Assembly (NCBI GenBank): GCA_030679255.1
Contig: JAUXTO010000022.1
Span: 128,915-192,914, forward strand
Direction: 5' to 3'
Length of the DNA: 64,000 nucleotides
Source: Candidatus Gottesmanbacteria bacterium
Lineage (GTDB): Bacteria > Patescibacteriota > Microgenomatia > UBA10105 > UBA927
Within the stretch, counting starts at the first letter, position 1, and the number at the start of each line of letters is the position of its first letter. Shown here piece after piece: positions 2,730-26,321 of the stretch. Below the pieces are notes generated by a model, which saw only the letters and a program-made list of their open reading frames with translations, was not told the DNA's origin and did not search any database. A program made the position numbers and the translations under genes.

Positions 2730-2829
2730 AACTTCACATTATCATTTCCGTATGATTTTGTCAACTCGTGAACGCGCACCCAGAATCTATTCCCTACAAC
2801 CCCCGCCCTAACAAGCTATAATACGGTGT

Positions 2830-4035
2830 ATGAAAAACTTATCCCCCGACGAACGGAAGCTCCTGATTATCCAGGGGTTGGATATCCTGGCGGCAAGCCT
2901 CGCCGGGATATTTACCACGGTTTTCTTCTTTTCCCATGGGGATTTGAAAGTAACGACTCTCTACAACATCGCGGCGTTTGCCTCCATGACGTTTTTTTAC
3001 GGTTCCTCGGGATTTCTCCTCCGGTATTTTTCCTCGGGTACCCTCATGAAAATCAGTTTGTTGGCGTTTTCACTCTTTTATCTTCTGCTGTTTTTTCTCA
3101 AAGACCAAAGCATCGCGTACGTCGTTCCCCTTGGTATCCTCTCCGGCTTCTCCGGAGGAATATACTGGGCGACGTACAACCTGAATCAATACATTCTTGC
3201 ACATGAACGAAGACGGGTCTCATACTTTGGCTGGGCTGGCGCTATATTTAATTTGGCAAGCGCCGTAGGCCCGGGCGTGGGGGGCCTCATCATCATGTTC
3301 GTAGGCCGGACTTCGCTCGGACTTACGAATGGATATCTCGCATTATTTCTGATTGTCGCCCTGATCAATATCATCACGGTGTTTGTGATCGGCAAACTCC
3401 CCGCCCATGGATCGCTGGATTTTTCTTACCGTCATATCTGGGAACACCGACGATCGATGCGCTGGAAACTCATTCTCGGACAAAACGCGGTACTAGGTTT
3501 ATTTGATATCGCGCTCGGCACCGTGACGGGCGTATTATTTTTCGTCATAGTAAAAAATGAAGCAGATTTGGGTTTCGTTCTCACTGTGGCTTCCACGATC
3601 GCAATCGCTTCCAATCTTTATGCTATCCCGCTTCTCACGAGATACCCATCCGCGTTTTGGATCGGTGTCGTCGGGTCTGCTCTCTCGATCATTGTGTTTG
3701 CGCTCTATCAATCGCCACTGGGCGTCTGGGCGTATATTATTATCTCCGGACTCACTGTTCCGATATTTAACAACAGAATATCTACAGTTTACTTTGGTAC
3801 GCTGGATAAAGAGGAGGGAGGATGGCAGCAAAAGTATCATCTCCTTCTCGAACGCGATATTGTGTTGGGAATATTCCGGACAATAAGTTTCGTCGGGCTT
3901 TTTATTTTTCTTCAATTCGGGAATGAAATTCAACTGGCAAAATCCTGGCTGTATCTCCTCCCCGTCCTACCCCTTGCCCTCGCCTTGTTGCTCCAAAAAA
4001 CGATTGCACTAGCTACTCCAAAAATAAAAAGTTAA
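2830..4035 (+). CDS. MFS-type transporter
   Basis: About 12 predicted TM helices with two 6-helix halves. The G/A-rich loop motifs are MFS-like. Confidence 0.55.
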   Translation: MKNLSPDERKLLIIQGLDILAASLAGIFTTVFFFSHGDLKVTTLYNIAAFASMTFFYGSSGFLLRYFSSGTLMKISLLAFSLFYLLLFFLKDQSIAYVVPLGILSGFSGGIYWATYNLNQYILAHERRRVSYFGWAGAIFNLASAVGPGVGGLIIMFVGRTSLGLTNGYLALFLIVALINIITVFVIGKLPAHGSLDFSYRHIWEHRRSMRWKLILGQNAVLGLFDIALGTVTGVLFFVIVKNEADLGFVLTVASTIAIASNLYAIPLLTRYPSAFWIGVVGSALSIIVFALYQSPLGVWAYIIISGLTVPIFNNRISTVYFGTLDKEEGGWQQKYHLLLERDIVLGIFRTISFVGLFIFLQFGNEIQLAKSWLYLLPVLPLALALLLQKTIALATPKIKS

Positions 4036-4051
4036 GATTTTAGGATTCTCC

Positions 4052-5086
4052 TCAACCGTTCTCACCTGCTGGAAAAAACAGCGTGTCGGCGATATCGCGG
4101 GCATCGGCAAACAACATAATCAACCGGTCGACGCCAATGGCAATTCCGCTGCACTTGGGTAACCCAACCTTTAACGCGTTAATGAAGTCGTGATCATAAT
4201 CATAGGACGTTTTTCCCAGCCGTTGGATCTCATGTAATTCTTTCTTAAATCTCTCCTCCTGTTCTTTGGCGTCGGTGAGTTCGCTGTAGCAATCTCCGAG
4301 CTCAAGCCCTGCGATATAAAACTCAAACCGTTCTGCAAGCCTGGGGTCGCTCGTTTTTTTCTTAGATAATGCTGCCATCGATGATGGGAAATCATACAGA
4401 ATAGTCGGTTTACCCCGGCCAAGCCGGGGTTCAATTTCATTGAGTAAAATCTGATTATAAAGTTGTTCCCAGGTCGTACTCGCTTCGATTGTATATCCCT
4501 TTTTTTGTGCAATTGCCCGGGCTTTTTTTTCATCCAAAAATTCATCGAAATGCACATGAGCATACTTTTTAAATGCTTGAGCGACAGAAAGCCGCTCCCA
4601 TGGAGGTGTGAGGTCAATTGGTTTCCCTTGATAGGAAACAATCAATGAACCGCGATTGACGAACCGTGCAATCGAAACGATGAGTTGCTCCGTGTCCTCC
4701 ATTATTCTCATGTAATCCGCCCCCACGCGGTAAAATTCAAGAATTGTAAATTCCGGATTATGGAGATTCCCCTGGGTTTCCATGTTCCGGAAACTTTTGG
4801 TTATTGCGTAGCAGTTGCCGATGCCTGCCACCATGAGTTTTTTTAAGGGGACTTCCGGAGAGGTGGAAAGGTAAGCGGGAGTAGCCTGACCGTTGCGGTC
4901 CAGAAGTTGCGTTTCAAAAACTTCGAGGTGCGATTCAGCAGGAGGATGGGCTATGAGGATCGGCGTTTCGACCTCATGAAATTGTTGATCGTCAAGATAT
5001 CGGCGTATCGCTTTGATGATCTTCTCACGGATAAAATATCTATCCCAAAGCTCAGGATGTTCTTTTAATAATTTCCAAGTCTTCAT
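4052..5086 (-). CDS. epmA: class II lysyl-tRNA synthetase-like catalytic core (EpmA/PoxA-like)
   Basis: Class II motifs are present: motif 2 FRNMETQGNLHNPEFTILEFY and motif 3 GIAIGVDRLIML. At 344 aa there is no N-terminal anticodon-binding domain, as in EF-P lysine ligase EpmA. Confidence 0.55.
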   Translation of the reverse strand: MKTWKLLKEHPELWDRYFIREKIIKAIRRYLDDQQFHEVETPILIAHPPAESHLEVFETQLLDRNGQATPAYLSTSPEVPLKKLMVAGIGNCYAITKSFRNMETQGNLHNPEFTILEFYRVGADYMRIMEDTEQLIVSIARFVNRGSLIVSYQGKPIDLTPPWERLSVAQAFKKYAHVHFDEFLDEKKARAIAQKKGYTIEASTTWEQLYNQILLNEIEPRLGRGKPTILYDFPSSMAALSKKKTSDPRLAERFEFYIAGLELGDCYSELTDAKEQEERFKKELHEIQRLGKTSYDYDHDFINALKVGLPKCSGIAIGVDRLIMLFADARDIADTLFFPAGENG

Positions 5087-5115
5087 CCACCTGATTATAC
5101 TCCATTATTACCGCC

Positions 5116-5203
5116 CTTTTTGGTAGTATTGGCCTGCCCGCAATGCTTCGCAAAGCGATGCAGGCGGGTAGTATTTGATGATTGAATTATTGGTAGTATT
5201 TCC
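5116..5203. repeat. intergenic composite repeat: TTGGTAGTATT motifs flanking a GC-rich imperfect dyad (cctgcccgcaatgc...gcaggcggg)
   Basis: The same GC-rich core recurs at 23098-23255 and 24521-24596. The TTGGTAGTATT motif recurs at 20157-20206 and 63770-63806. Confidence 0.6.
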
Positions 5204-7490: not shown

Positions 7491-8195
7491 CTATTCTTTC
7501 TTAGCGCTTTCTTCCTTTGCTTTTTCAGCCGGTGCTGCTCCCTCGGCAGTTGGGGCGGCGGCGGCGCCCTCGGCCGCTACTTCACTAGCCGCTTCAGCAG
7601 CTTTGGCTACGTCAGCAGCCACTTCGCTTGCTGCTTCTTTTGTTATGAGCGATCCAACCTTCACGATAGTCAATTCCGCATCGGTTAAGACAGTGAGTCC
7701 GGCGGGGACTTTCAAATCTTTGACTTTTACCTCCTGCCCGACTTCGGAAAGCGCGGTCACGTCAACCTCGATGTGTTCGACAAGTTCGGTAGGCAACGCT
7801 TCGACTTCCACCCCATCTAATATGCTCAATACGACCCCACGCTTCTCGCTGACGACAGAAGATTGCCCCGTTAACACAATCGGCACCTTTGCGTGGACTT
7901 TTTCCTTGAGGTCTACCTGATGAAATTCAACATGAAGTATAGTTCCTGTGACCGGATGTTTCTGGACATGATGAATGAGAACGTGTCGGACGGCTCCCCC
8001 CACGGATAGCTCAATCAACCCGGTCTCCCCTGCTTCACCATAGGTTTTCGCAAACGCCTCAGACGCGACCGTGAGGGATACGCTCTTCACTTTTTTTCCA
8101 TAAACGGTTGCAGGAAGCTCCCCTGCCTTACGGAGTTTTTTGACTTTTCTTCCAAGAGAATCGCGTTTCGTGGCGGAGAGTGAGTGTTTTTTCAT
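7491..8195 (-). CDS. rplY: 50S ribosomal protein L25 / general stress protein Ctc
   Basis: N-terminus KRDSLGRKVKKLRKAGELPATVYGK is the L25 signature. The A/E-rich C-terminal tail is as in Ctc. Confidence 0.85.
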   Translation of the reverse strand: MKKHSLSATKRDSLGRKVKKLRKAGELPATVYGKKVKSVSLTVASEAFAKTYGEAGETGLIELSVGGAVRHVLIHHVQKHPVTGTILHVEFHQVDLKEKVHAKVPIVLTGQSSVVSEKRGVVLSILDGVEVEALPTELVEHIEVDVTALSEVGQEVKVKDLKVPAGLTVLTDAELTIVKVGSLITKEAASEVAADVAKAAEAASEVAAEGAAAAPTAEGAAPAEKAKEESAKKE

Positions 8196-10861: not shown

Positions 10862-11359
10862 TTAGTCGTCAAGCGCTTGATTGACGAAATAATCCGCCCG
10901 GGTATTCTGTTCCCTGGGTACATACGAATAAGTCACTACTCCCCCAACCTCTTGTTCGAGAATACGAACGTCAAAAAAAAGCTTTTTCAGATGCGGATCT
11001 TTTACCTGAAAGTTTCCATTCAGTTGCTGCACCACGAGATTTGAGTCAAGAAAAAATTGTATTTCAAAATTTCTATCTGCTTGGTCATTGGTCATTGTGA
11101 TTTGTGATTTGAGATTTCGTAGTGCTTCCAGCACCGCGGTGTATTCCGCTACATTATTCGTCGTCTCCCCTATCCTCTTCCCAAACTCTGTAACGAGGAC
11201 TTTTGACTTTCCCGCCTGCAACGCTATGCGTAGCATTGCGGGCAGGTGACTTTCGACTTTCGACTCTTCCTCTCTTTCTATCACCACCCCCACCGCCGCC
11301 GGTCCCGGGTTCCCCCTCGCTCCCCCATCAGTATGTACGATTAGTTTCATAAATTCCAA
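10862..11359 (-). CDS. rnhA: ribonuclease HI
   Basis: HTDGGARGNPGPAAVGVVI (DEDD Asp/Glu), TNNVAEYTAVLEAL and C-terminal REQNTRADYFVNQAL. Confidence 0.8.
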   Translation of the reverse strand: MEFMKLIVHTDGGARGNPGPAAVGVVIEREEESKVESHLPAMLRIALQAGKSKVLVTEFGKRIGETTNNVAEYTAVLEALRNLKSQITMTNDQADRNFEIQFFLDSNLVVQQLNGNFQVKDPHLKKLFFDVRILEQEVGGVVTYSYVPREQNTRADYFVNQALDD

Positions 11360-11417: not shown

Positions 11418-12788
11418 TTATTGTTTGCCTTCCTTTGGAGCTTTGAATTTGTTTGGTGTTTGGTGCTTGTTATTTGGCGCTTGAACATTGTGCCTATCGG
11501 TATCTATGGTACGAAATAACGACCAGAGATAACCAGCGGATAGTAATAGCACCAACCCTTCACTCCCGACCGTAATCCATGCCGCTCCGATAGCCCCGAA
11601 TGTTGGAATGACCAAGATATCTAATAGTACCGTGACTATCATCAAACTTCCATAGATCACTGCTAAAACGATTTGTTTTCCAAGGGCGATAAGCGCCCAC
11701 ATCATGAGACTCGAAAGAAAAAAGAACGGCAATCCCAGGGTCAGCACGCGCAAGAGGGGAATACTCTCAGTAAACTCCGGACGGATGACAGCGAGGAGGG
11801 GAGCAGCTAACCAAAATGTGAGACATAAGACGACGGACATAAGACATAAGATGATACAGGATTTTTTCAATAGTTTCTTCGTTTCATAGGTCCTACGTCC
11901 TACGTCCTGCGTCATTTGTTTAACGAGGAGTAGGGGATACACCGCGTTCATAAAAAACGTCGGGAGCACGATGGGCAACTCAAACACTTTATACGCGAGT
12001 CCATAGAGTCCTACTTCGGCAGTGGACCGGGTCAGCGCCAGGACAAAACTGTCAATCCGAAAGTACACTTGATTAAAGAGTAACGTGATTCCCAAAGGAA
12101 GGGATGCCATAAAAAGTATTTTCGCGGTTTTTCGATCAAAGGAGATTTGAGCATGGCGTTCAAGGTGGCGAACAAATATGAACGAAACCATTCCGGTCAC
12201 ACTCAACCCAACGAGCAGTGACGTCGTCACGCCGAGGATTCCAATGCGGGATGATAATCCGTAGATAGTAAACGCAACGAGGGCCACCGTCACGATGTTG
12301 CCGGCGGCGATGGCCAAACTTGCCAAGTCATACCGCAAATGTTTCTGAAATATCGCATTTGCCGATACAATCAATCCTTGGATGAGAATAGTAGGGGAGA
12401 AGAGAATAATGCCCAAGCGGACCAGTCCTGTAAATCCTTGGGTGTCGCGTTGGGGGAGAAACGACAAGATTGCGATTGCAACAAACATGAGGACGATACC
12501 ACCCGCGACCCGCATCCCCAAGAGCGTCGCCCAATCCGCCTTCCCGTTTACTGTTTTTTGTTTATTGTTTCCTGTCTGCCTTCGCAGATACACGGCATTG
12601 AGTCCAAAATCAACGAGGAGATAAAAAAATGCGATAAACGTCGTGATCTTCGTAAAGTCCCCATACCCCTGTGCTCCAAATTCCCGAGCAATGAGGATAC
12701 TCACGAAAAACATCGCCCCACTCCCCACGACTTTTCCCACGAGCTGACTGCCGGTATTCCATGCAACATTCCATCTCATCGAAGACAT
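11418..12788 (-). CDS. polysaccharide flippase (Wzx/MOP superfamily)
   Basis: About 12-14 TM helices; N-terminal region typical of oligosaccharide flippases. Confidence 0.65.
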   Translation of the reverse strand: MSSMRWNVAWNTGSQLVGKVVGSGAMFFVSILIAREFGAQGYGDFTKITTFIAFFYLLVDFGLNAVYLRRQTGNNKQKTVNGKADWATLLGMRVAGGIVLMFVAIAILSFLPQRDTQGFTGLVRLGIILFSPTILIQGLIVSANAIFQKHLRYDLASLAIAAGNIVTVALVAFTIYGLSSRIGILGVTTSLLVGLSVTGMVSFIFVRHLERHAQISFDRKTAKILFMASLPLGITLLFNQVYFRIDSFVLALTRSTAEVGLYGLAYKVFELPIVLPTFFMNAVYPLLLVKQMTQDVGRRTYETKKLLKKSCIILCLMSVVLCLTFWLAAPLLAVIRPEFTESIPLLRVLTLGLPFFFLSSLMMWALIALGKQIVLAVIYGSLMIVTVLLDILVIPTFGAIGAAWITVGSEGLVLLLSAGYLWSLFRTIDTDRHNVQAPNNKHQTPNKFKAPKEGKQ

Positions 12789-17028: not shown

Positions 17029-18093
17029 TCAGCTAAAATTATTTACTTTCATGCGGCTGTTTACCTGATAACTTCTCCCAGCCTTGGCAATCCTTTTTCC
17101 ATTAACTTTGACAATGTCCGCCGTAAAATCGTTGTTCCCATGCACAAGTGCCGACCCCACGCCATATCCATCCACCGGCGTCTTTTCTTTCTCAAACATC
17201 CGTACCTTCTCCTCGGTAAATCCTCCGGACACGAGTATTTTAACATGGCCGTATCCATTGTCGTTGAGTGCTTTCCGAACGAGCATAACCAACGTCGGAT
17301 TAACCCCAAACATATTTTTTGTATTTTTACTCAATGATTTATCAACCATATTGCCCGCAGTATCCAGTCGTACGCCCCACAACTTTTTCCCAAGGGCTTT
17401 GGCCACCGCCAGCGAGGAACCCACGCAATCGTTATCAAAATCAACAAGGGCAACAATGTTCACACCACGAATATGTTTAGCAAACAATTCTGCTGCCTTC
17501 ACCGTACTACCATCATTGACTGCAATGAGTGCATGGGGGATAGTGCCGACGGGAATTCCGTTCCACCGTGATGCGTGGGCAACCGTGCACACGCCCGCCG
17601 CACCCCCGATGTGCGCCGCGTACCCATCACCTTCCTGATTATGGAAATCATCAAACCGGTCGGCAAAGAAAAACACCGGTTTGCCGTTCGCGGCTTCTAT
17701 AACGCAGCGCGTGTTGGTCGCCACCATCGTGCGCCGTGCGAGGATGCCCAAGTATAATGATTCAAGATGAGCAAAATACAAATATGAACCGGTAACGTGC
17801 ATTATCGGCTCTCGATTACCAATGGTATCGCCATCGGAAAGCGCGGATACAGTAAGTGTTTGGTTTTTTGAAACCCATCGGGCTCCCCGCCACATCCCCG
17901 CTCCTACACGAAGAAGCTCTCCTACCTCATCCACACCACATAAAACACTGTTCTCGTTTCTCTGAAATATCTGCATTGTCACAACGGTCGTATCGCCTTC
18001 CCGCTCGAGGATATATTTGGTCCGGTTGAAGTACGTGGCACTATAGAATCCGCGCCGAATCCGCTCAATAGTTAGCTTATCCCAATACGTCAT
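17029..18093 (-). CDS. pncB: nicotinate phosphoribosyltransferase (short archaeal-type)
   Basis: YFNRTKYILE N-terminal motif and NAPRTase-family core at 354 aa. Only a 6-nt gap separates it from pncA. Confidence 0.7.
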   Translation of the reverse strand: MTYWDKLTIERIRRGFYSATYFNRTKYILEREGDTTVVTMQIFQRNENSVLCGVDEVGELLRVGAGMWRGARWVSKNQTLTVSALSDGDTIGNREPIMHVTGSYLYFAHLESLYLGILARRTMVATNTRCVIEAANGKPVFFFADRFDDFHNQEGDGYAAHIGGAAGVCTVAHASRWNGIPVGTIPHALIAVNDGSTVKAAELFAKHIRGVNIVALVDFDNDCVGSSLAVAKALGKKLWGVRLDTAGNMVDKSLSKNTKNMFGVNPTLVMLVRKALNDNGYGHVKILVSGGFTEEKVRMFEKEKTPVDGYGVGSALVHGNNDFTADIVKVNGKRIAKAGRSYQVNSRMKVNNFS

Positions 18094-21093: not shown

Positions 21094-21474
21094 TTAGGGT
21101 TTAGCGATTTCTGATTGAGATTTTTTGATAAGTCCCCGGATAAGTTTGCTCACAAAAGTAGATTGTTCTGCGATTCTCCTGAATGCGTCCAAAGAGATAT
21201 ATCCCACATCGCGGCTCACCAACAACTGATTCTGTAATTCCGTAAGTGATCCAAGAGATATTGAATAAAATTGCAGCTTCTCTTTCCATGAATTTCTGCT
21301 AAATCCTTCTGCAATATTGGATGTTATAGAAACAGCACATCGGCGTATCTGGCTTGTTAGACCAAATAATTCCTCTCTTGGAAATCCTTTTGTTATACGA
21401 TAAATATCCAATACCAACACATGTCCCTCTTTCCATGCAACAAGATCAGTAAACGACAATATTTTTTCATTCAT
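21094..21474 (-). CDS. four-helix-bundle protein (TIGR02436; 23S rRNA IVS-protein family)
   Basis: 126 aa with the family motifs KEGHVLVLDIYRITKGFP and ITSNIAEGFSR. It is inserted between rnpA and yidD. Confidence 0.7.
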   Translation of the reverse strand: MNEKILSFTDLVAWKEGHVLVLDIYRITKGFPREELFGLTSQIRRCAVSITSNIAEGFSRNSWKEKLQFYSISLGSLTELQNQLLVSRDVGYISLDAFRRIAEQSTFVSKLIRGLIKKSQSEIAKP

Positions 21475-22244: not shown

Positions 22245-22592
22245 TTATTTTTGTTGAGCTTTGATCATCAAATCAATCTCACGCTTCAAAACTGGCAGGT
22301 CGTCTTGTATCGTTTTCCAAATCACTTCTAGATCGATACCAAAGTACTCATGGACTACCTTGTCGCGCGCACCGACGACTTGTTTCCATGGGACAGTGGG
22401 ATACGCAAGACGCAGCGGCTCTGGTATGTGTCGCGCGGCTTCACCGATCACTTCGATGTTTCGAACCACCGCATCTATCGTCCGGGCGTCCCGGGAAAAC
22501 GCCTCAAAAGACATAGACGACACAAACTCGTTTATCTTTTCTATCGCCTCACGGATATCGGACAAGTAGAGAAGCGTGTTGTGTTCAGACAT
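22245..22592 (-). CDS. hepT: HepT-like toxin (DUF86/HEPN)
   Basis: HEPN-type Rx4HxY motif region in RDKVVHEYFGID. It overlaps the upstream MNT gene by 8 nt. Confidence 0.8.
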   Translation of the reverse strand: MSEHNTLLYLSDIREAIEKINEFVSSMSFEAFSRDARTIDAVVRNIEVIGEAARHIPEPLRLAYPTVPWKQVVGARDKVVHEYFGIDLEVIWKTIQDDLPVLKREIDLMIKAQQK

Positions 22593-22881
22593 AAACCGTC
22601 TCCCGTAAGACCACGTCTTTTATAAATGGTTTGAGTGCATTTACCGTAACGACATCCACATTCCGCTTCAAGAGTGTTTTTAAACGATCCTCAAGCTCAA
22701 TGAGCTTAAATAGCCCAATCGGTTGTGTGAGTTCTACGAGGATATCCACGTCGCTTGTTCGCTTGGTGTCGCCGCGCGCCACAGAGCCGAACACGCCCAA
22801 TCGTCTCACTGAGTATGATTCTCTAAAATGGGGAATGCTCTGCTTGAGTATCTTCTTTGCGGTTGCCAAATCTATCATCAT
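22585..22881 (-). CDS. mntA: MNT nucleotidyltransferase antitoxin
   Basis: GVFGSVARGDTKRTSDVDILV, the minimal NTase GSx9-13DxD motif. Confidence 0.8.
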   Translation of the reverse strand: MMIDLATAKKILKQSIPHFRESYSVRRLGVFGSVARGDTKRTSDVDILVELTQPIGLFKLIELEDRLKTLLKRNVDVVTVNALKPFIKDVVLRETVYV

Positions 22882-23048: not shown

Positions 23049-23350
23049 GGCTGTAAGCCTCCAGACCGAGGGAAGCGTACTACGGGGCAACTTCCTCCCT
23101 GCCCGCAATGCCCTGCCCGAAGCTGCTGCATCGCTGCAGGCGGGTGCGCATAGCGTTGCAGGCGGGCCACGTGATGGGCACGTCTCTCATACTATCCGGC
23201 ATGGAGATGAGAAGACGGGCCTGCCCGCAATGCAAGCAACGCGTTGCAGGCGGGGATTATAGAGGAAAAGTTCCGCCGAAGTTGAATTGTTTTGCGAGAT
23301 GCTTACCAAGTCCCGCTGCAAGAGGAAGCTTCCGGCGACAAAAATGCCTT
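23049..23350. repeat. GC-rich composite repeat, copy A (about 300 bp)
   Basis: A core of about 83 nt (ctgcccgcaatgccctgcccgaagctgctgcatcgctgcaggcgggtgcgcatagcgttgcaggcgggccacgtgat) is identical to 24521-24596. A distal segment, gctgcaagaggaagct.ccggcgacaaaaatgccttg, is also shared. Confidence 0.85.
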
Positions 23351-23369
23351 GTCCAACCAACCGTTCTTT

Positions 23370-24026
23370 CTATGCGAGACGAGCGCTCGTATCTCCAAGA
23401 CATACCTGATGGATGAGATTCCAGCGTAAATAGGGGATCAGTTCTTTCTCCTCTTTTGGAGTTTCGCTGGTCATGAGAGTCTGTATGGTGTGTTTTATCA
23501 TGTCTTTCGATTGTCCGTTTGCCTCACCCACAGAATGTCCTTTGAGTATTGCCATAGCAACCTGATTAGACGGTTCGAGAAACAATTGCGCAGTTTTATC
23601 ATTGAGTGGCCGGGTCATATACTCGTCTTCAATAAAAAACACAAAATCGTCTGTGTATCCAAGGTACGCCATCGCACCCTTTGCGACACTCGCAGGTCCG
23701 AGTACTGCCGCAGAACTACAGGATCGGGCATACACGACGGTACCGAAAAATATGTCATCATTTTCACCGACCTCGACAAGCACTTCATTGTTTTGTCCAC
23801 CAACCTTATCCGCGCTGCCATGGCCATTGAGAAATATAAACGCCTGGCCGCCACGCTTACACAATACGCTCTCGAATTCTTTTCGCGTCGCCCGAGGGCC
23901 GCGAAGGTCTATCACATGCAAGGACCGTTTATCGGCGTAATCAATGACCGATTGACTCCAAAAAGAGAGGTAGTTCGTAGTGACGTCGTGATTGGGACGG
24001 GTGATAACCATGGGATTACTCTTCAA
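23370..24026 (-). CDS. hypothetical protein (possible His/Cys-dyad peptidase-like)
   Basis: 218 aa. FIFLNGHGSADK and VVYARSCSSAAV resemble the caspase/gingipain-type GHG...AC arrangement. Weak. Confidence 0.35.
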   Translation of the reverse strand: MKSNPMVITRPNHDVTTNYLSFWSQSVIDYADKRSLHVIDLRGPRATRKEFESVLCKRGGQAFIFLNGHGSADKVGGQNNEVLVEVGENDDIFFGTVVYARSCSSAAVLGPASVAKGAMAYLGYTDDFVFFIEDEYMTRPLNDKTAQLFLEPSNQVAMAILKGHSVGEANGQSKDMIKHTIQTLMTSETPKEEKELIPYLRWNLIHQVCLGDTSARLA

Positions 24027-24252
24027 ACGTGAGGCCTTCTTTTAACGATTGAAGGTAGGAAAGCTGTATCTGGATAATTTTATTTCCCACCGGATCGTTT
24101 TTGCCCACGCGGTCAATAAGCTCCTCTTTAGAAAACTCCCCGTCGGAACCGATAGACAACTTCTTACTCGAAGGAAATGATCGGAGGCGTGCAATGACTA
24201 ATTGGCGGACTTCTTCATCCGTCACTTTCTTTTTATTATATATATCGCTCAT
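24016..24252 (-). CDS. hypothetical small protein
   Basis: 78 aa; translationally coupled by overlaps to both neighbours. Confidence 0.35.
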   Translation of the reverse strand: MSDIYNKKKVTDEEVRQLVIARLRSFPSSKKLSIGSDGEFSKEELIDRVGKNDPVGNKIIQIQLSYLQSLKEGLTFEE

Positions 24253-24437
24253 AGCACGCCAAGTCCTTCGAGTTTTTCCAGAATAATACGAGAAAGCTTT
24301 GTGTCCTGATCGACTTCCAGCTTTGCCACTTTCCAGGTGATCGGCTCGTTATCCAATACCACTATCACTTCTTCTCTCAGATTGAGCGGTAAATTATTAT
24401 AGACCTTGTAAAATCGTTCTTGAAGGGTCATATCCAT
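24249..24437 (-). CDS. hypothetical small protein
   Basis: Start set at MDMTLQERF, because the longer ORF extends into repeat copy B. Confidence 0.3.
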   Translation of the reverse strand: MDMTLQERFYKVYNNLPLNLREEVIVVLDNEPITWKVAKLEVDQDTKLSRIILEKLEGLGVL

Positions 24438-24484
24438 TGCATTGTATCTCCCCACAGAACAAATCTCAATCAGGGTGCGGTTAT

Positions 24485-24790
24485 CTGAAGCGCGAAGCGG
24501 TTCAGGGAGCAACCTCTTCCCTGCCCGCAATGCCCTGCCCGAAGCTGCTGCATCGCTGCAGGCGGGTGCGCATAGCGTTGCAGGCGGGCCACGTGATCAG
24601 GGAGCAACCTCTTCCCACGTAATCGGCACATCTCGCATACTATCCGGCATGGAGATGAGGAGCCGGGGATTGTAGAGGAAGAGTTCCGCGGCGGTCGTGG
24701 TATTTTGAGATATACCCTCGAGGTCGCGCTGCAAGAGGAAGCTCCCGGCGACAAAAATGCCTTGACCCACAAGTCTTTCTTTCCCCACGA
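24485..24790. repeat. GC-rich composite repeat, copy B, with internal 17-18-bp duplication (cagggagcaacctcttcc)
   Basis: See copy A. The short direct repeat cagggagcaacctcttcc flanks the identical core at 24503-24520 and 24597-24614. Confidence 0.85.
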
Positions 24791-26321
24791 CCGTACTCGT
24801 TCCGGTCTGGAAGGTCCCCGTGGGGCTCGTCACATAAACGCCTTCGATTGCTGGAGTGTTCGACGAATACAATCCACCGACGGAGGAGGCAACGGTGATA
24901 TTGCCGTTGACGATGAAGGCAGCAAAGCCCGATCCCGTCAGCGTCACTTTCCCACCAAGGGTGAGATTTCCATTAACAATAACTATAACCGTTTCTCCGT
25001 CGGCGACCGCCCAATCTCCGCTGGTCGTCATATTTCCCACCACATAGTAAGGGGTGGCGCGCGACGCGGGTTTGGCAACGGCTGTGAGATCTGCGAATGC
25101 ATCAGCCGTCGTCCCTCCCCCGAACCGGCGGTAAAAAAGATCATAATAATTTATATTTGCGTAGGCCGCATTGGCAAGTTGATTGGTCGAGGAGACATAG
25201 CTTTCTCCAACCAGGAGCGGACTGGCGTCAAAATCATAGCTTGTGCCGTAGGTGACCAGTCCCGGCGTCCCGCCGGATCCATCGAGCGCAAACGTCCGCG
25301 GACTGACCGACGCCGAAACCGGAGATGTCACGGCCCCCGATCCATACACATTACCGCCTCCGCCGGTTTGCACCCAAGGGCCGGAGAAGGTGTAGCCCAA
25401 TTGCCAGGTGATGGTATCCCCATCCACGGGCACGGAAAGCGTCGTCGAGAGTCCTTCGCCGGAAAGGGCAGCGTTGAGCACCCGACTCCAACACGCACGG
25501 GCCAAGGTGTAATCACTAGCGGCCGTGGGGGAGATCGTGTAGCTCCCGCCGACGATGGGGGAGAAGGATACATAATTATTGCCTGACTGGATTTGCGCCG
25601 TGGGTTGACTCGCCGATCCGGGGGTGAAGGCGTGGCTCGTGCCGGTTAAACCCGTGGTTGATGCCGCGACCGCTGTGCAGGACGTATCAGCAGCCGTAAC
25701 CTGCACGGCTTTGGCCTGGATCGCCCCCACACAATCGATGGTCTGGGTGTAGCCGGTATAGCAATCATACCCCACGGTCCTACTTTTCTTGGCCGGGCTT
25801 GCCGAGCAGACCGACCACGCGCTCACGTACGGCCCACCTTCCGTGCATCCCGGCGCGGGCGTACCGGACGGTGGAGGGGGCGCACTCCCGCCGGTCGGAA
25901 CCGGCGGGGGAGTCGATCCCGGCGGGGGAGTCGTCGTCACCGTTGGCGCCGTAGTCGGCGTCGGCAGCGCCGTCCCGCAATCCCCGGGATTACAATACGT
26001 ACAACAAATTTGTTGGATACAAGGGGCAGGATTCTGAATACAATCTGGTGGATCAGCTACGTATTCCAGTCGATATCCCGGAGTACAGTTTGGCGTGAGA
26101 TAAGGGGCTGTTCCACAATTTAGCCATACTTGTTCTAACTTTTGTCCACAATAATTTTGATTTACACTTGTACAAGATGTGGAGGTTCCTCCGCAGTTTG
26201 CCGAACAAAAATTTTGAGCAGATACGCTTGTCACCAAAAAAACCGAGGCAAAAAAGAAACCGACAATTATCGTGGCAAGCGTTTTAATAAATTTATTTAC
26301 ATCCATAGACAAGTAAAACAT
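24597..26321 (-). CDS. secreted/surface protein with Cys-rich domain, Pro/Thr-rich linker and large C-terminal domain
   Basis: N-terminal TM or signal segment, many paired Cys residues, and the linker PTPTTAPTVTTTPPPGSTPPPVP. The last 60 codons or so are encoded by repeat copy B. Confidence 0.5.
   Translation of the reverse strand: MFYLSMDVNKFIKTLATIIVGFFFASVFLVTSVSAQNFCSANCGGTSTSCTSVNQNYCGQKLEQVWLNCGTAPYLTPNCTPGYRLEYVADPPDCIQNPAPCIQQICCTYCNPGDCGTALPTPTTAPTVTTTPPPGSTPPPVPTGGSAPPPPSGTPAPGCTEGGPYVSAWSVCSASPAKKSRTVGYDCYTGYTQTIDCVGAIQAKAVQVTAADTSCTAVAASTTGLTGTSHAFTPGSASQPTAQIQSGNNYVSFSPIVGGSYTISPTAASDYTLARACWSRVLNAALSGEGLSTTLSVPVDGDTITWQLGYTFSGPWVQTGGGGNVYGSGAVTSPVSASVSPRTFALDGSGGTPGLVTYGTSYDFDASPLLVGESYVSSTNQLANAAYANINYYDLFYRRFGGGTTADAFADLTAVAKPASRATPYYVVGNMTTSGDWAVADGETVIVIVNGNLTLGGKVTLTGSGFAAFIVNGNITVASSVGGLYSSNTPAIEGVYVTSPTGTFQTGTSTVVGKERLVGQGIFVAGSFLLQRDLEGISQNTTTAAELFLYNPRLLISMPDSMRDVPITWEEVAP

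Follow-up and report, generated by a model that had tools for sequence, protein, structure and literature searches.

We analyse a window of 64,000 nucleotides from a metagenome-assembled genome (MAG) of Candidatus Gottesmanbacteria (Microgenomates, candidate phyla radiation, CPR), and in particular two direct repeats of about 300 bp that bracket a three-gene operon on its minus strand. Each repeat is a composite and not one element: it consists of a duplicated gene end, which we denote R, together with inserted hairpin elements. R is the last 62 codons (about 190 nt) of a gene for a secreted protein of the DUF7305 type. The contents of the stretch between this gene and rpmH-rnpA-yidD-yidC turn over among Gottesmanbacteria and other Microgenomates. 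It is probable, though only just, that this stretch is a cargo slot whose turnover is driven by homologous recombination anchored in R. If so, the locus would offer a concrete, testable picture of accessory-gene exchange in the tiny genomes of the CPR, which hold few mobile-element genes: the conserved gene end would act as a portable homology arm, and former ends would pile up as markers of past events.

Anatomy of the two repeats

An earlier note on this DNA, made from its letters alone, described two GC-rich direct repeats with three minus-strand open reading frames (ORFs) between them. All of these exist. Three collinear blocks link 23072–23370 (copy A) to 24494–24783 (copy B), each copy is 59% G+C as compared with 47% for the window, and the first two of the three ORFs overlap by ATGA. 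The blocks are as follows.

23248–23370 and 24661–24783: block 1, 78% identity
23167–23219 and 24615–24667: block 2, 89% identity
23072–23175 and 24494–24597: block 3, 92% identity

The identical core that had been reported is also real, and its length is 80 nt (23096–23175 = 24518–24597) instead of about 83. Read along the genes, the two copies resolve into the following parts, where R_A and R_B denote the versions of R in copies A and B.

24600–24785, stop codon at 24597–24599, minus strand: R_B, the coding part of copy B and the end of the 574-aa ORF
24494–24596, minus strand: R_B2, a third and very short R fragment just past that stop, forming the other half of copy B
23247–23369, minus strand: 5' part of R_A, codons 2–42, frame still open
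23220–23254, plus strand: 35-nt hairpin after codon 41 of R_A, frameshifting
23167–23217, minus strand: middle part of R_A, codons 41–57 (RLLISMPDSMRDVPITW), 100% amino-acid and 89% nucleotide identity to R_B
23098–23166, plus strand: 69-nt nested hairpin between W57 and E58 of R_A, frame kept
23072–23097, minus strand: tail of R_A, consisting of GAGGAAGTTGCCCCGTAG (EEVAP and stop, 23080–23097) and about 8 nt of shared 3' flank

On the minus strand, copy B thus reads as the last 62 codons of the 574-aa ORF, GKERLVGQGIFVAGSFLLQRDLEGISQNTTTAAELFLYNPRLLISMPDSMRDVPITWEEVAP, and then the stop; the suggestion that it supplies some 60 codons of that ORF was correct. The 80-nt core of copy B lies in R_B2, past the stop and outside the gene. 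In gene sense R_B2 runs TCACGTGG (24589–24596), the 69-nt nested hairpin (24520–24588), GAAGAGGTTGCTCCCTGA (24502–24519) and about 8 nt of shared 3' flank. This fragment is the reason for the internal duplication in copy B, which had been put at 17–18 bp and is an exact repeat of 20 nt (24502–24521 = 24597–24616). Composites of the same type follow R copies in two other loci (loci outside the window carry the prefix L), namely L008 (4170–4300) and L140 (10190–10370), and a degenerate one follows in L016.

Copy A consists of the same 62 codons in the same order, beginning at codon 2 directly past the TAG of the operon's third gene, which encodes a protein of 213 aa. It carries two GC-rich inserts, of 35 nt after codon 41 and of 69 nt between W57 and E58. 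Its 5' part is 88% identical to R_B in protein and 77% in DNA. Copies A and B form a clean pair of filled and empty sites for the hairpin, without target duplication, and L145 carries the same variant of the 35-nt hairpin at the same site.

The architecture is not an assembly artefact, since two independent sequences agree with it. A contig of the same strain from another assembler (L012) is 100% identical over 23146–24547 and breaks inside both identical cores; the layout of gene with R, operon and R recurs in L140, a contig from an unrelated groundwater sample. The window's proteins match the NCBI entries Q8L37_03980, _03985 and _03995, which belong to a contig of 258 kb.

Cargo beyond the gene end

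Across Microgenomates the order of genes is a gene for about 700–850 aa, a gene for about 200 aa, the DUF7305 gene ending in R, a variable gap, and then rpmH, rnpA, yidD, yidC and jag. Even where R is 87–95% identical between relatives, their gaps hold different genes.

Window and L140: after the gene with R, the operon, then R
L008: R, DUF2268 with HEPN/MNT, R, HTH-PIN, R, the operon, R, rpmH
L016 and L144: MNT/HepT directly
L139: a YcaO cluster with a Cys/Gly-rich peptide
L141/L143: PEP mutase, Fe-ADH and HAD; R; radical SAM, APH and IMPase; R; rpmH
L147: radical SAM, APH and IMPase as cargo, with a detached R next to rpmH
L145: LeuRS, Dtd and an aminotransferase; R; an MNT-like gene; R
L014: a bAvd-like gene and a 339-aa gene, then an R of 14 codons

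The operon is flanked by R copies in L140, L008–L011 and L153; L008 has toxin-antitoxin pairs as cargo as well. The comparison of relatives for the block between the repeats, which the earlier note had proposed, finds the operon present in L140, L008 and L153 and missing from L016 and L144. The latter two look like the product of a deletion between R copies: past the stop they retain a hairpin, and part of the last 18 nt is left as well. Detached R copies begin at residue 1, 2, 6, 20, 29, 31, 44, 47 or 49 of the 62, and all of them run through ...WEEVAP and the stop in the gene's own orientation. Their lengths range from 14 to 89 codons, L002 keeping 89.

Because the cargo differs among relatives and an extra R stands on its far side, the repeats mark a recombination-prone cargo slot. 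To this extent the idea of a mobilised or recombination-prone cassette stands; a recombinase of its own is no part of it, since none occurs among the operon proteins. Nor did a scan of 20 cargo proteins of the relatives return an integrase or transposase.

Two of the cargo blocks can be described further. L139, the closest relative by R (95%), has a YcaO cyclodehydratase gene at 2789–4422 with a 68-aa Cys/Gly-rich peptide (...GDCGGGGDCGGACAGDCGCDGGGTCASECAQCGCG) encoded upstream; this looks like a cluster for a ribosomally synthesised and post-translationally modified peptide. The block of PEP mutase, Fe-alcohol dehydrogenase and HAD hydrolase at L143 1296–6605 looks like a phosphonate-type pathway in a CPR genome.

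Divergence of the gene-end copies

Over codons 2–42, R_A and R_B differ at 28 nucleotides, 21 of them synonymous (proportion of synonymous differences, pS, 0.70; of nonsynonymous differences, pN, 0.08; binomial p = 2e-8). This divergence equals that between the gene ends of different genomes. Moreover, the detached copy near rpmH in L147 shares 91% identity with the gene end in use in L145, as compared with only 76% with the gene end of its own genome. Since the divergence is mostly synonymous, and given the case of L147, the copies are not a recent duplicate decaying in situ. By their pattern of substitution, the R copies are gene ends on which selection acted for the greater part of their past.

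These comparisons bear on two other accounts of the repeats. According to the first, the 3' end of the gene was duplicated in tandem where it stands, and copy A is a decaying pseudogene unlinked to gene gain or loss. The frameshifting 35-nt insertion in copy A and its lack of the gene's 5' part fit this account, but 75% of the differences between the copies are synonymous, pS is saturated at 0.70, the cargo between the copies varies among relatives and an empty site exists; we consider the account very improbable. According to the second, the locus is a diversity-generating retroelement that uses copy A as template for the variable repeat, copy B. Two direct repeats of about 120 nt, one of them at the 3' end of a gene for a secreted protein, and a bAvd-like four-helix-bundle gene nearby (21094–21474) are what such an element would show. 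The mismatches, however, do not cluster at the adenines of either copy (A 6, T 10, G 7 and C 5 of the 28), the repeat region is the most conserved part of the DUF7305-type family, and no reverse transcriptase is seen adjacent. We rejected this reading on the mismatch spectrum, and it retains practically no probability.

How cargo may enter and leave

Under the reading that we favour, cargo would enter and leave by RecA-type recombination anchored in R, with no integrase encoded by the element. The first step would be a crossover within the conserved gene end, and the second a joint inside or next to the resident R that would leave a detached R copy behind; later deletion or exchange between R copies could remove or replace the cargo. 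For the unit formed by ACGTGG, the hairpin and GAAGAGG through the stop, identity on the two sides of the operon would result either from gene conversion or from a last crossover within the unit.

Several observations weigh against this picture. Its mechanism and direction (a gain in the window or a loss in L016) are ones that we infer from end states, and neither a recombination intermediate nor a donor sequence was seen. Furthermore, the first 41 codons of R_A are constrained between the window and L140 (11577–11699), with pS 0.57, pN 0.12 and p = 5e-5. This counts against the status of R_A as a relic, because a plain relic should have drifted neutrally. In addition, the unit that flanks the operon is identical within each genome (80 nt in the window, about 66 nt in L140) and the hairpins of the two genomes differ. 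Identical units of the form ACGTGG, hairpin, GAAGA through the stop therefore call for homogenisation by conversion or for a crossover at the unit, and they keep a site-specific model alive. Finally, the last 50 nt or so are kept in all detached copies, as a site-specific core would predict.

The site-specific model holds that the last 50 nt or so, the hairpin unit, or both serve as an att-like site for a recombinase encoded elsewhere, each integration adding one copy of the site, as in islands at the 3' ends of tRNA genes or modules that depend on dif/Xer. It would explain why detached copies share their 3' end and orientation whatever their 5' truncation, why arrays of three or four copies separate successive cassettes in L008, L140, L143/L147 and L145, and why each of two genomes with different hairpins has identical hairpin units flanking its operon. 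On the other hand, no integrase, Xer-like or HUH gene occurs in the operon or among the 20 cargo proteins, and the length of the repeat is not fixed but ranges from 14 to 89 codons. The gene ends of L139 and L145 are clean, without a hairpin, and are nonetheless followed by different cargo; and large cargo with housekeeping genes (LeuRS, on the opposite strand) is unlike that of cassette systems. On this evidence we hold the model to be unlikely, though by no means negligible.

The constraint on R_A deserves closer attention. The window and L140 share the joint between operon and R_A (TAG followed directly by A(A)AGAACGG). The ratio pN/pS of R_A between the two is 0.21, and all amino-acid changes fall in the family's variable linker; pS of the host genes in the same comparison is 0.54–0.68. 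Each lineage has its own kind of damage in the 3' half of R_A, and large deletions occur in L008 and L153. Candidate small ORFs are found at 23187–23360 in the window, at 11544–11933 in L140 and at 17314–17535 in L145. Possible sources of the constraint are a translated small ORF, an alternation between detached and working states by recombination, and patching by conversion.

The first of these sources belongs to a third account, in which R is a C-terminal signal for recognition or processing and the caspase-like enzyme encoded by the operon acts on the surface protein; in that case copy A would be translated, at least over its first 41 codons, as a fourth ORF of the operon and would serve as decoy, substrate or regulator. 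Purifying selection on these codons between the window and L140 speaks for such a coupling, as do the available start codons (TTG for the ORF of the window, ATG for that of L140, which overlaps the end of gene 3, and an ATG created at the joint of operon and R in L008) and the position of the operon directly past the DUF7305 gene end in at least three lineages. Against it, the protease has no signal peptide and the surface protein is secreted; the operon occurs without a nearby R in L004 and L006, and the DUF7305 gene without a nearby operon in L013, L014 and L016; the window has R_A in the frame of gene 3, unlike L140; and its 3' half is broken in the lineage-specific ways just described. We think such a coupling rather improbable.

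A widespread hairpin element

The inserts in the repeats are copies of a 36-nt imperfect palindrome, CCTGCCCGCAATGC-T-NCGC-ATA-GCGN-TGCAGGCGGG. The 69-nt version is one hairpin element of 33 nt nested in the loop of another copy, and the 80-nt identical core of the repeats is this nested pair, located between codons 57 and 58 of R. Altogether the window holds five copies (5133–5168, 11211–11246, 23098–23166, 23220–23254 and 24520–24588), and pattern matches number 5 and 7 as against about 0.4 expected by chance. Two of the copies stand alone.

5133–5168, plus strand: solo 36-nt hairpin in an intergenic spacer
11211–11246, minus strand: solo 36-nt hairpin within a short GAAAGTC tandem repeat

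The first of these is the core fragment that had been noticed at 5131–5170, which is thus real; the second had been missed.

In a pattern scan of one genome per species, which yielded at least 120 loci (L019–L138 and L156–L158), the hairpin appears with identical arms in at least 120 species-level genomes of several phyla. Among the matches listed are many classes of Patescibacteria, together with Verrucomicrobiota, Kiritimatiellia and Lentisphaerae, MAGs labelled Gammaproteobacteria or Bdellovibrionales, and one Woesearchaeota bin. Several MAGs have copies on several contigs, and the flanks of the copies are unrelated. The element is 36 nt long in 78 copies and 39 nt in 23.

This distribution bears on yet another account of the repeats, namely that each is only an element of the repetitive extragenic palindrome (REP) kind, which by chance stands on both sides of the operon. 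The earlier note had named a widespread REP-like element as the finding that would undo its cassette. The description fits the identical core, which is the nested form of a hairpin found also at 5133, at 11211 and in at least 120 other genomes. It fails for the remainder of the repeat: about 190 of the roughly 300 nt in each copy are gene-end sequence outside the hairpin, conserved at the level of protein, and the gene-end copies go together with differences in cargo. As an explanation of the whole repeat this is very improbable indeed, a shade more so than duplication in situ.

The hairpin lies at least 40 codons inside an ORF in 57 of 128 copies, as compared with 69% expected at random. Its length is a multiple of three in 54 of these 57 and in 52 of the 71 copies elsewhere (Fisher p = 0.0017), and 37 of the 57 share one reading frame, that of the short hydrophilic peptide PARNAxHSxAGG. 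The inner stem co-varies (the pair 16–26 is AU in 11 cases, UA in 11 and GC in 2; none of 500 shuffles reaches the score), and, taken as a single strand, the element folds better than when shuffled (z = -4.0). Orthologues from different CPR classes have the hairpin at the same place in the protein (L027/L086, L024/L106 and L071/L121). For example, in the probable ribosomal protein S9 of one Saccharibacteria and one Nomurabacteria genome it is N-terminal, just ahead of the GRRK motif (L027 6894–6929, L086 3721–3756). Such shared positions reflect either ancient retention or a strong insertion hot spot.

Flanking direct repeats of at least 6 nt accompany 17 of 127 copies, about 4 being expected, and many of them are, by eye, local short tandem repeats. 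Indeed, many hairpins lie in the middle of a short tandem repeat with a period of 7–8 nt (GAAAGTC, AGAAGTT, GAAAATT), as in L058, L060, L113, L040, L073 and L109 and at 11190–11270 of the window. At codons 40–42 of R, the natural target (AATC CCCGCCT CCTC; region of 23254–23262 in the window, aligned with its equivalents in L140, L153 and L008) already holds the first 7 nt of the hairpin, and the filled site has CCCGCCT and CCCGTCT on its two sides. This hints at an insertion through microhomology or template switching.

Two further kinds of insert occur at these sites. A second and different GC-rich hairpin (CCCGCCTTCG...ACGGACGGG) stands in relatives at the site of the window's 36-nt element, between ACGTGG and GAAGA (L140 10290–10345 and 11815–11870, L008 4198–4275, L016 at about 7715–7760), and a third kind (CTCCTTCGAC...) recurs after MPDS in detached R copies.

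We found no Rfam family for the hairpin, either over the whole window at the gathering threshold or over the repeat region at E <= 10. No copy occurs in PLSDB or INPHARED, and IMG/VR has it on two contigs only; we therefore rejected the view of it as a phage or plasmid sequence and, since no run of T follows it, likewise rejected an intrinsic terminator. A keyword search of the literature gave no description of the sequence and returned only organelle analogies. Other palindromic insertions that keep the reading frame are the GC clusters and hairpin elements of mitochondria (PMC7813641, PMC4524435).

With the palindromic elements of Rickettsia the hairpin has in common that a short palindrome is tolerated inside coding genes, in frame and translated. 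The 69-nt insert of R_A keeps the frame, and insertions within ORFs are mostly multiples of three (54/57). It differs from them in its sequence and length (36–39 nt as compared with 100–150 nt), in having arms that are identical across lineages of the CPR, the Planctomycetes-Verrucomicrobia-Chlamydiae group (PVC), Proteobacteria and others instead of being confined to one genus, in its preference for one reading frame (37/57), and in that copies nest in each other's loops. It resembles REP sequences and bacterial interspersed mosaic elements, which are served by REP-associated tyrosine transposases (RAYT, of the Y1 HUH type), in being an imperfect palindrome of about 35 nt, present in many copies, apparently without a consistent target duplication, sometimes nested or paired and often just past stop codons. 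Unlike these it lacks a conserved 5' tetranucleotide of the GTAG type, it is not species-specific, and 57 of 128 copies are located deep within ORFs. We identified no RAYT gene for it and made no genome-wide search for one. As regards integrons, the arms CCTGCCCGCAA / TTGCAGGCGGG do not, by eye, fit the attC core (RYYYAAC ... GTTRRRY), and the array at our locus is headed by a surface-protein gene and not by intI.

The hairpin is the most unexpected item of the locus and is worth a study of its own. Its peptide PARNAxHSxAGG often lies inside essential proteins, and its arms are identical across very different phyla; if mobile, it would be an unusually small and promiscuous element, and if functional, an unrecognised signal shared across phyla. 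It is a speculative notion, to which we give little credence, that the hairpin is the recognition signal of an undescribed recombination system acting on single strands (of the HUH type or other) in the CPR, the PVC group and other uncultured lineages. Such a system would spread the hairpin in frame through genes, ribosomal protein S9 included, and would capture and exchange gene cassettes at gene ends marked by hairpins; in that case the locus would correspond, in the CPR, to an integron platform.

The secreted-protein gene and its conserved end

The gene whose end supplies R is the following.

24597–26321, minus strand: gene for a secreted, Cys/Pro/Thr-rich surface protein of the DUF7305 type, 574 aa, with a signal peptide

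In searches of Pfam, NCBIfam, PADLOC and PHROGs the protein has a weak match to DUF7305 only. We found 65 homologues, of which those inspected are 250–430 aa long and some are flagged as DUF7305. The 16 family members examined have in common the C-terminal motif ...AELFxYNPxLLxxMPDxMxxxxxxWQEVAP with the same stop position. R is strongly conserved because it encodes this motif. The motif also settles a point on which the earlier note had been doubtful, namely the true C-terminus of the 574-aa protein: copy B is its genuine end. The NCBI annotation of the gene gives 392 aa instead of the 574 aa of the ORF. Since the signal peptide and the long Cys-rich N-terminal region are conserved in L140 and L145, the annotated start probably lies too far downstream.

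The operon and its caspase-fold protein

The three-gene unit between the repeats comprises the following features.

24441–24469, minus strand: promoter-like site TTGAGA-17-TACAAT, 10/12 consensus matches
24249–24437, minus strand: gene 1, 60–62 aa, opening the three-gene unit in all relatives
24016–24252, minus strand: gene 2, 78 aa, 32 homologues, 18 invariant columns
23370–24011, minus strand: gene 3, 213 aa, candidate cysteine protease resembling clan CD, stand-alone and cytoplasmic

With its own promoter-like site the operon is self-contained. The site ends 3 nt ahead of the first ATG, so the transcript would lack a leader or have only a very short one. Both hexamers of the site are conserved in L008 and the -10 one in L140. 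With the ATG at 24011 as its start, as in the NCBI annotation (213 aa), gene 3 begins 4 nt past the stop of gene 2. In every relative examined the 213-aa protein is preceded by genes for about 60 and about 78 aa, and the other neighbours vary. None of the three operon proteins has a match in Pfam, NCBIfam, PADLOC or PHROGs. The suggestion of a module of the defence or toxin type is therefore not borne out: such matches are lacking, and the family is large and strongly conserved across Microgenomates.

The 213-aa family has 358 matches in 90% clusters and 2355 representatives at 50% identity, of which the 150 listed are mostly 200–220 aa long. The AlphaFold (AF2) model of the window's protein is confident (pLDDT 96.9, pTM 0.92) and predicts an alpha/beta sandwich with a six-stranded sheet. 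In the model His64 (FIFLNGH64G) follows strand 58–62 and Cys98 (VVYARSC98) follows strand 92–96; N62-G63-H64-G65 and C98 are invariant in an alignment of 48 family members. The best neighbour in the PDB by Foldseek is the SAVED-CHAT structure 8tl0 (E = 2e-5, TM 0.58), and others include caspase-7, C11, the legumain-like OaAEP1, Craspase CHAT, separase and CED-3. The top matches are all clan CD enzymes (8tl0, 8dgz, 6mzo, 5h0i, 7y84, 9hn5 and 4m9r).

In its fold and its dyad the model thus upholds the comparison with caspases and gingipains that two motifs had originally suggested; structure prediction yielded a confident caspase/CHAT fold and not the non-peptidase fold that would have spoken otherwise. 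We accordingly regard the product, as modelled, as a candidate cysteine protease of caspase/CHAT fold, similar to clan CD, and as what is predicted to be a new family of a known fold. It must be weighed against this that the call draws on a predicted structure, that the TM-scores to known enzymes are moderate (0.53–0.59) and that no curated family matches: Pfam returns no C14, CHAT, C11, C13 or C25 at threshold for the window's protein, and a profile search of the PDB with it returns nothing relevant. Among 48 family members there is one chance-level match each to C25 (E = 0.058) and CHAT (E = 0.092).

As in the clan CD peptidases with which we compared it (CHAT, 8tl0 and the Craspase TPR-CHAT 7y84; caspases, 8dgz and 4m9r; C11, C13 and separase), the family has, at invariant positions, His-Gly behind one strand and then Cys behind the following strand. 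It differs in being only 213 aa long and stand-alone, without a sensor, TPR or pro-domain, and in being encoded after two small proteins of unassigned fold. Gene 1 has no family match and no profile match in the PDB. The model of gene 2 (pLDDT 82) consists of a helix, a short beta-hairpin and two helices; a fold search and a profile search of the PDB gave no significant structural neighbour. The two are not paralogues (hhalign probability 0.2%).

The 213-aa protein carries no signal peptide, and the protease would be active in the cytoplasm, partnered or regulated by the two small proteins; together they would be a candidate for a simple regulated protease switch. A minimal caspase-fold family that databases do not cover would provide the smallest stand-alone units of the CHAT/caspase-like kind.

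Comparison with known systems

The repeats that bracket the operon are a variant of a known theme, that of gene-end duplicates at a hot spot of integration or recombination. As in islands at the 3' ends of tRNA, tmRNA and protein genes, with their attL and attR sites, the 3' end of the target gene stays intact, a partial direct copy of that end lies beyond the insert, and multi-copy arrays and empty sites occur in relatives. At our locus, in contrast, no recombinase domain was found in the three operon proteins and 20 cargo proteins, the remainder of the genome lying outside the search. The repeat is long (14–89 codons), with no fixed crossover point and mostly synonymous divergence, and the cargo ranges from a 1.1-kb operon to 7-kb blocks with housekeeping genes.

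A second parallel is provided by rhs and cdiA loci, in which orphan, displaced C-terminal modules lie downstream and a conserved handle lies upstream of the exchanged, variable toxin tip. On the reading that we favour, there as here a conserved coding segment of a secreted protein serves as the handle for recombination, and former ends pile up downstream in the same orientation. At R, however, it is the very C-terminus that would form the handle, the genes exchanged behind it are unrelated, and no logic of toxin and immunity is evident. A third parallel is homology-facilitated illegitimate recombination in natural transformation, known from Acinetobacter and Streptococcus. By analogy, one-sided homology would give variable cuts at the 5' side and a continuous native 3' side, which is the pattern of the detached R copies.

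Other features of the window

The next unit of the variable zone is a toxin-antitoxin pair.

22245–22881, minus strand: MNT/HepT toxin-antitoxin pair

The window contains no tRNA genes. Between rnpA and yidD lies the four-helix-bundle gene (23S rRNA IVS protein or bAvd-like, 21094–21474) mentioned above, a homologue of which stands directly after the DUF7305 gene end in L014 (8021–8395). An iterated motif, TTGGTAGTATT / AATACTACCAA, occurs at 5100–5200 upstream of a minus-strand gene and again at L008 30–100, upstream of the DUF2268 cassette that comes after an R copy; it may be a promoter or operator common to the two. Lastly, the cumulative GC skew decreases steadily from the first position on and begins to rise at about 59–60 kb, where a replication origin or terminus may lie.

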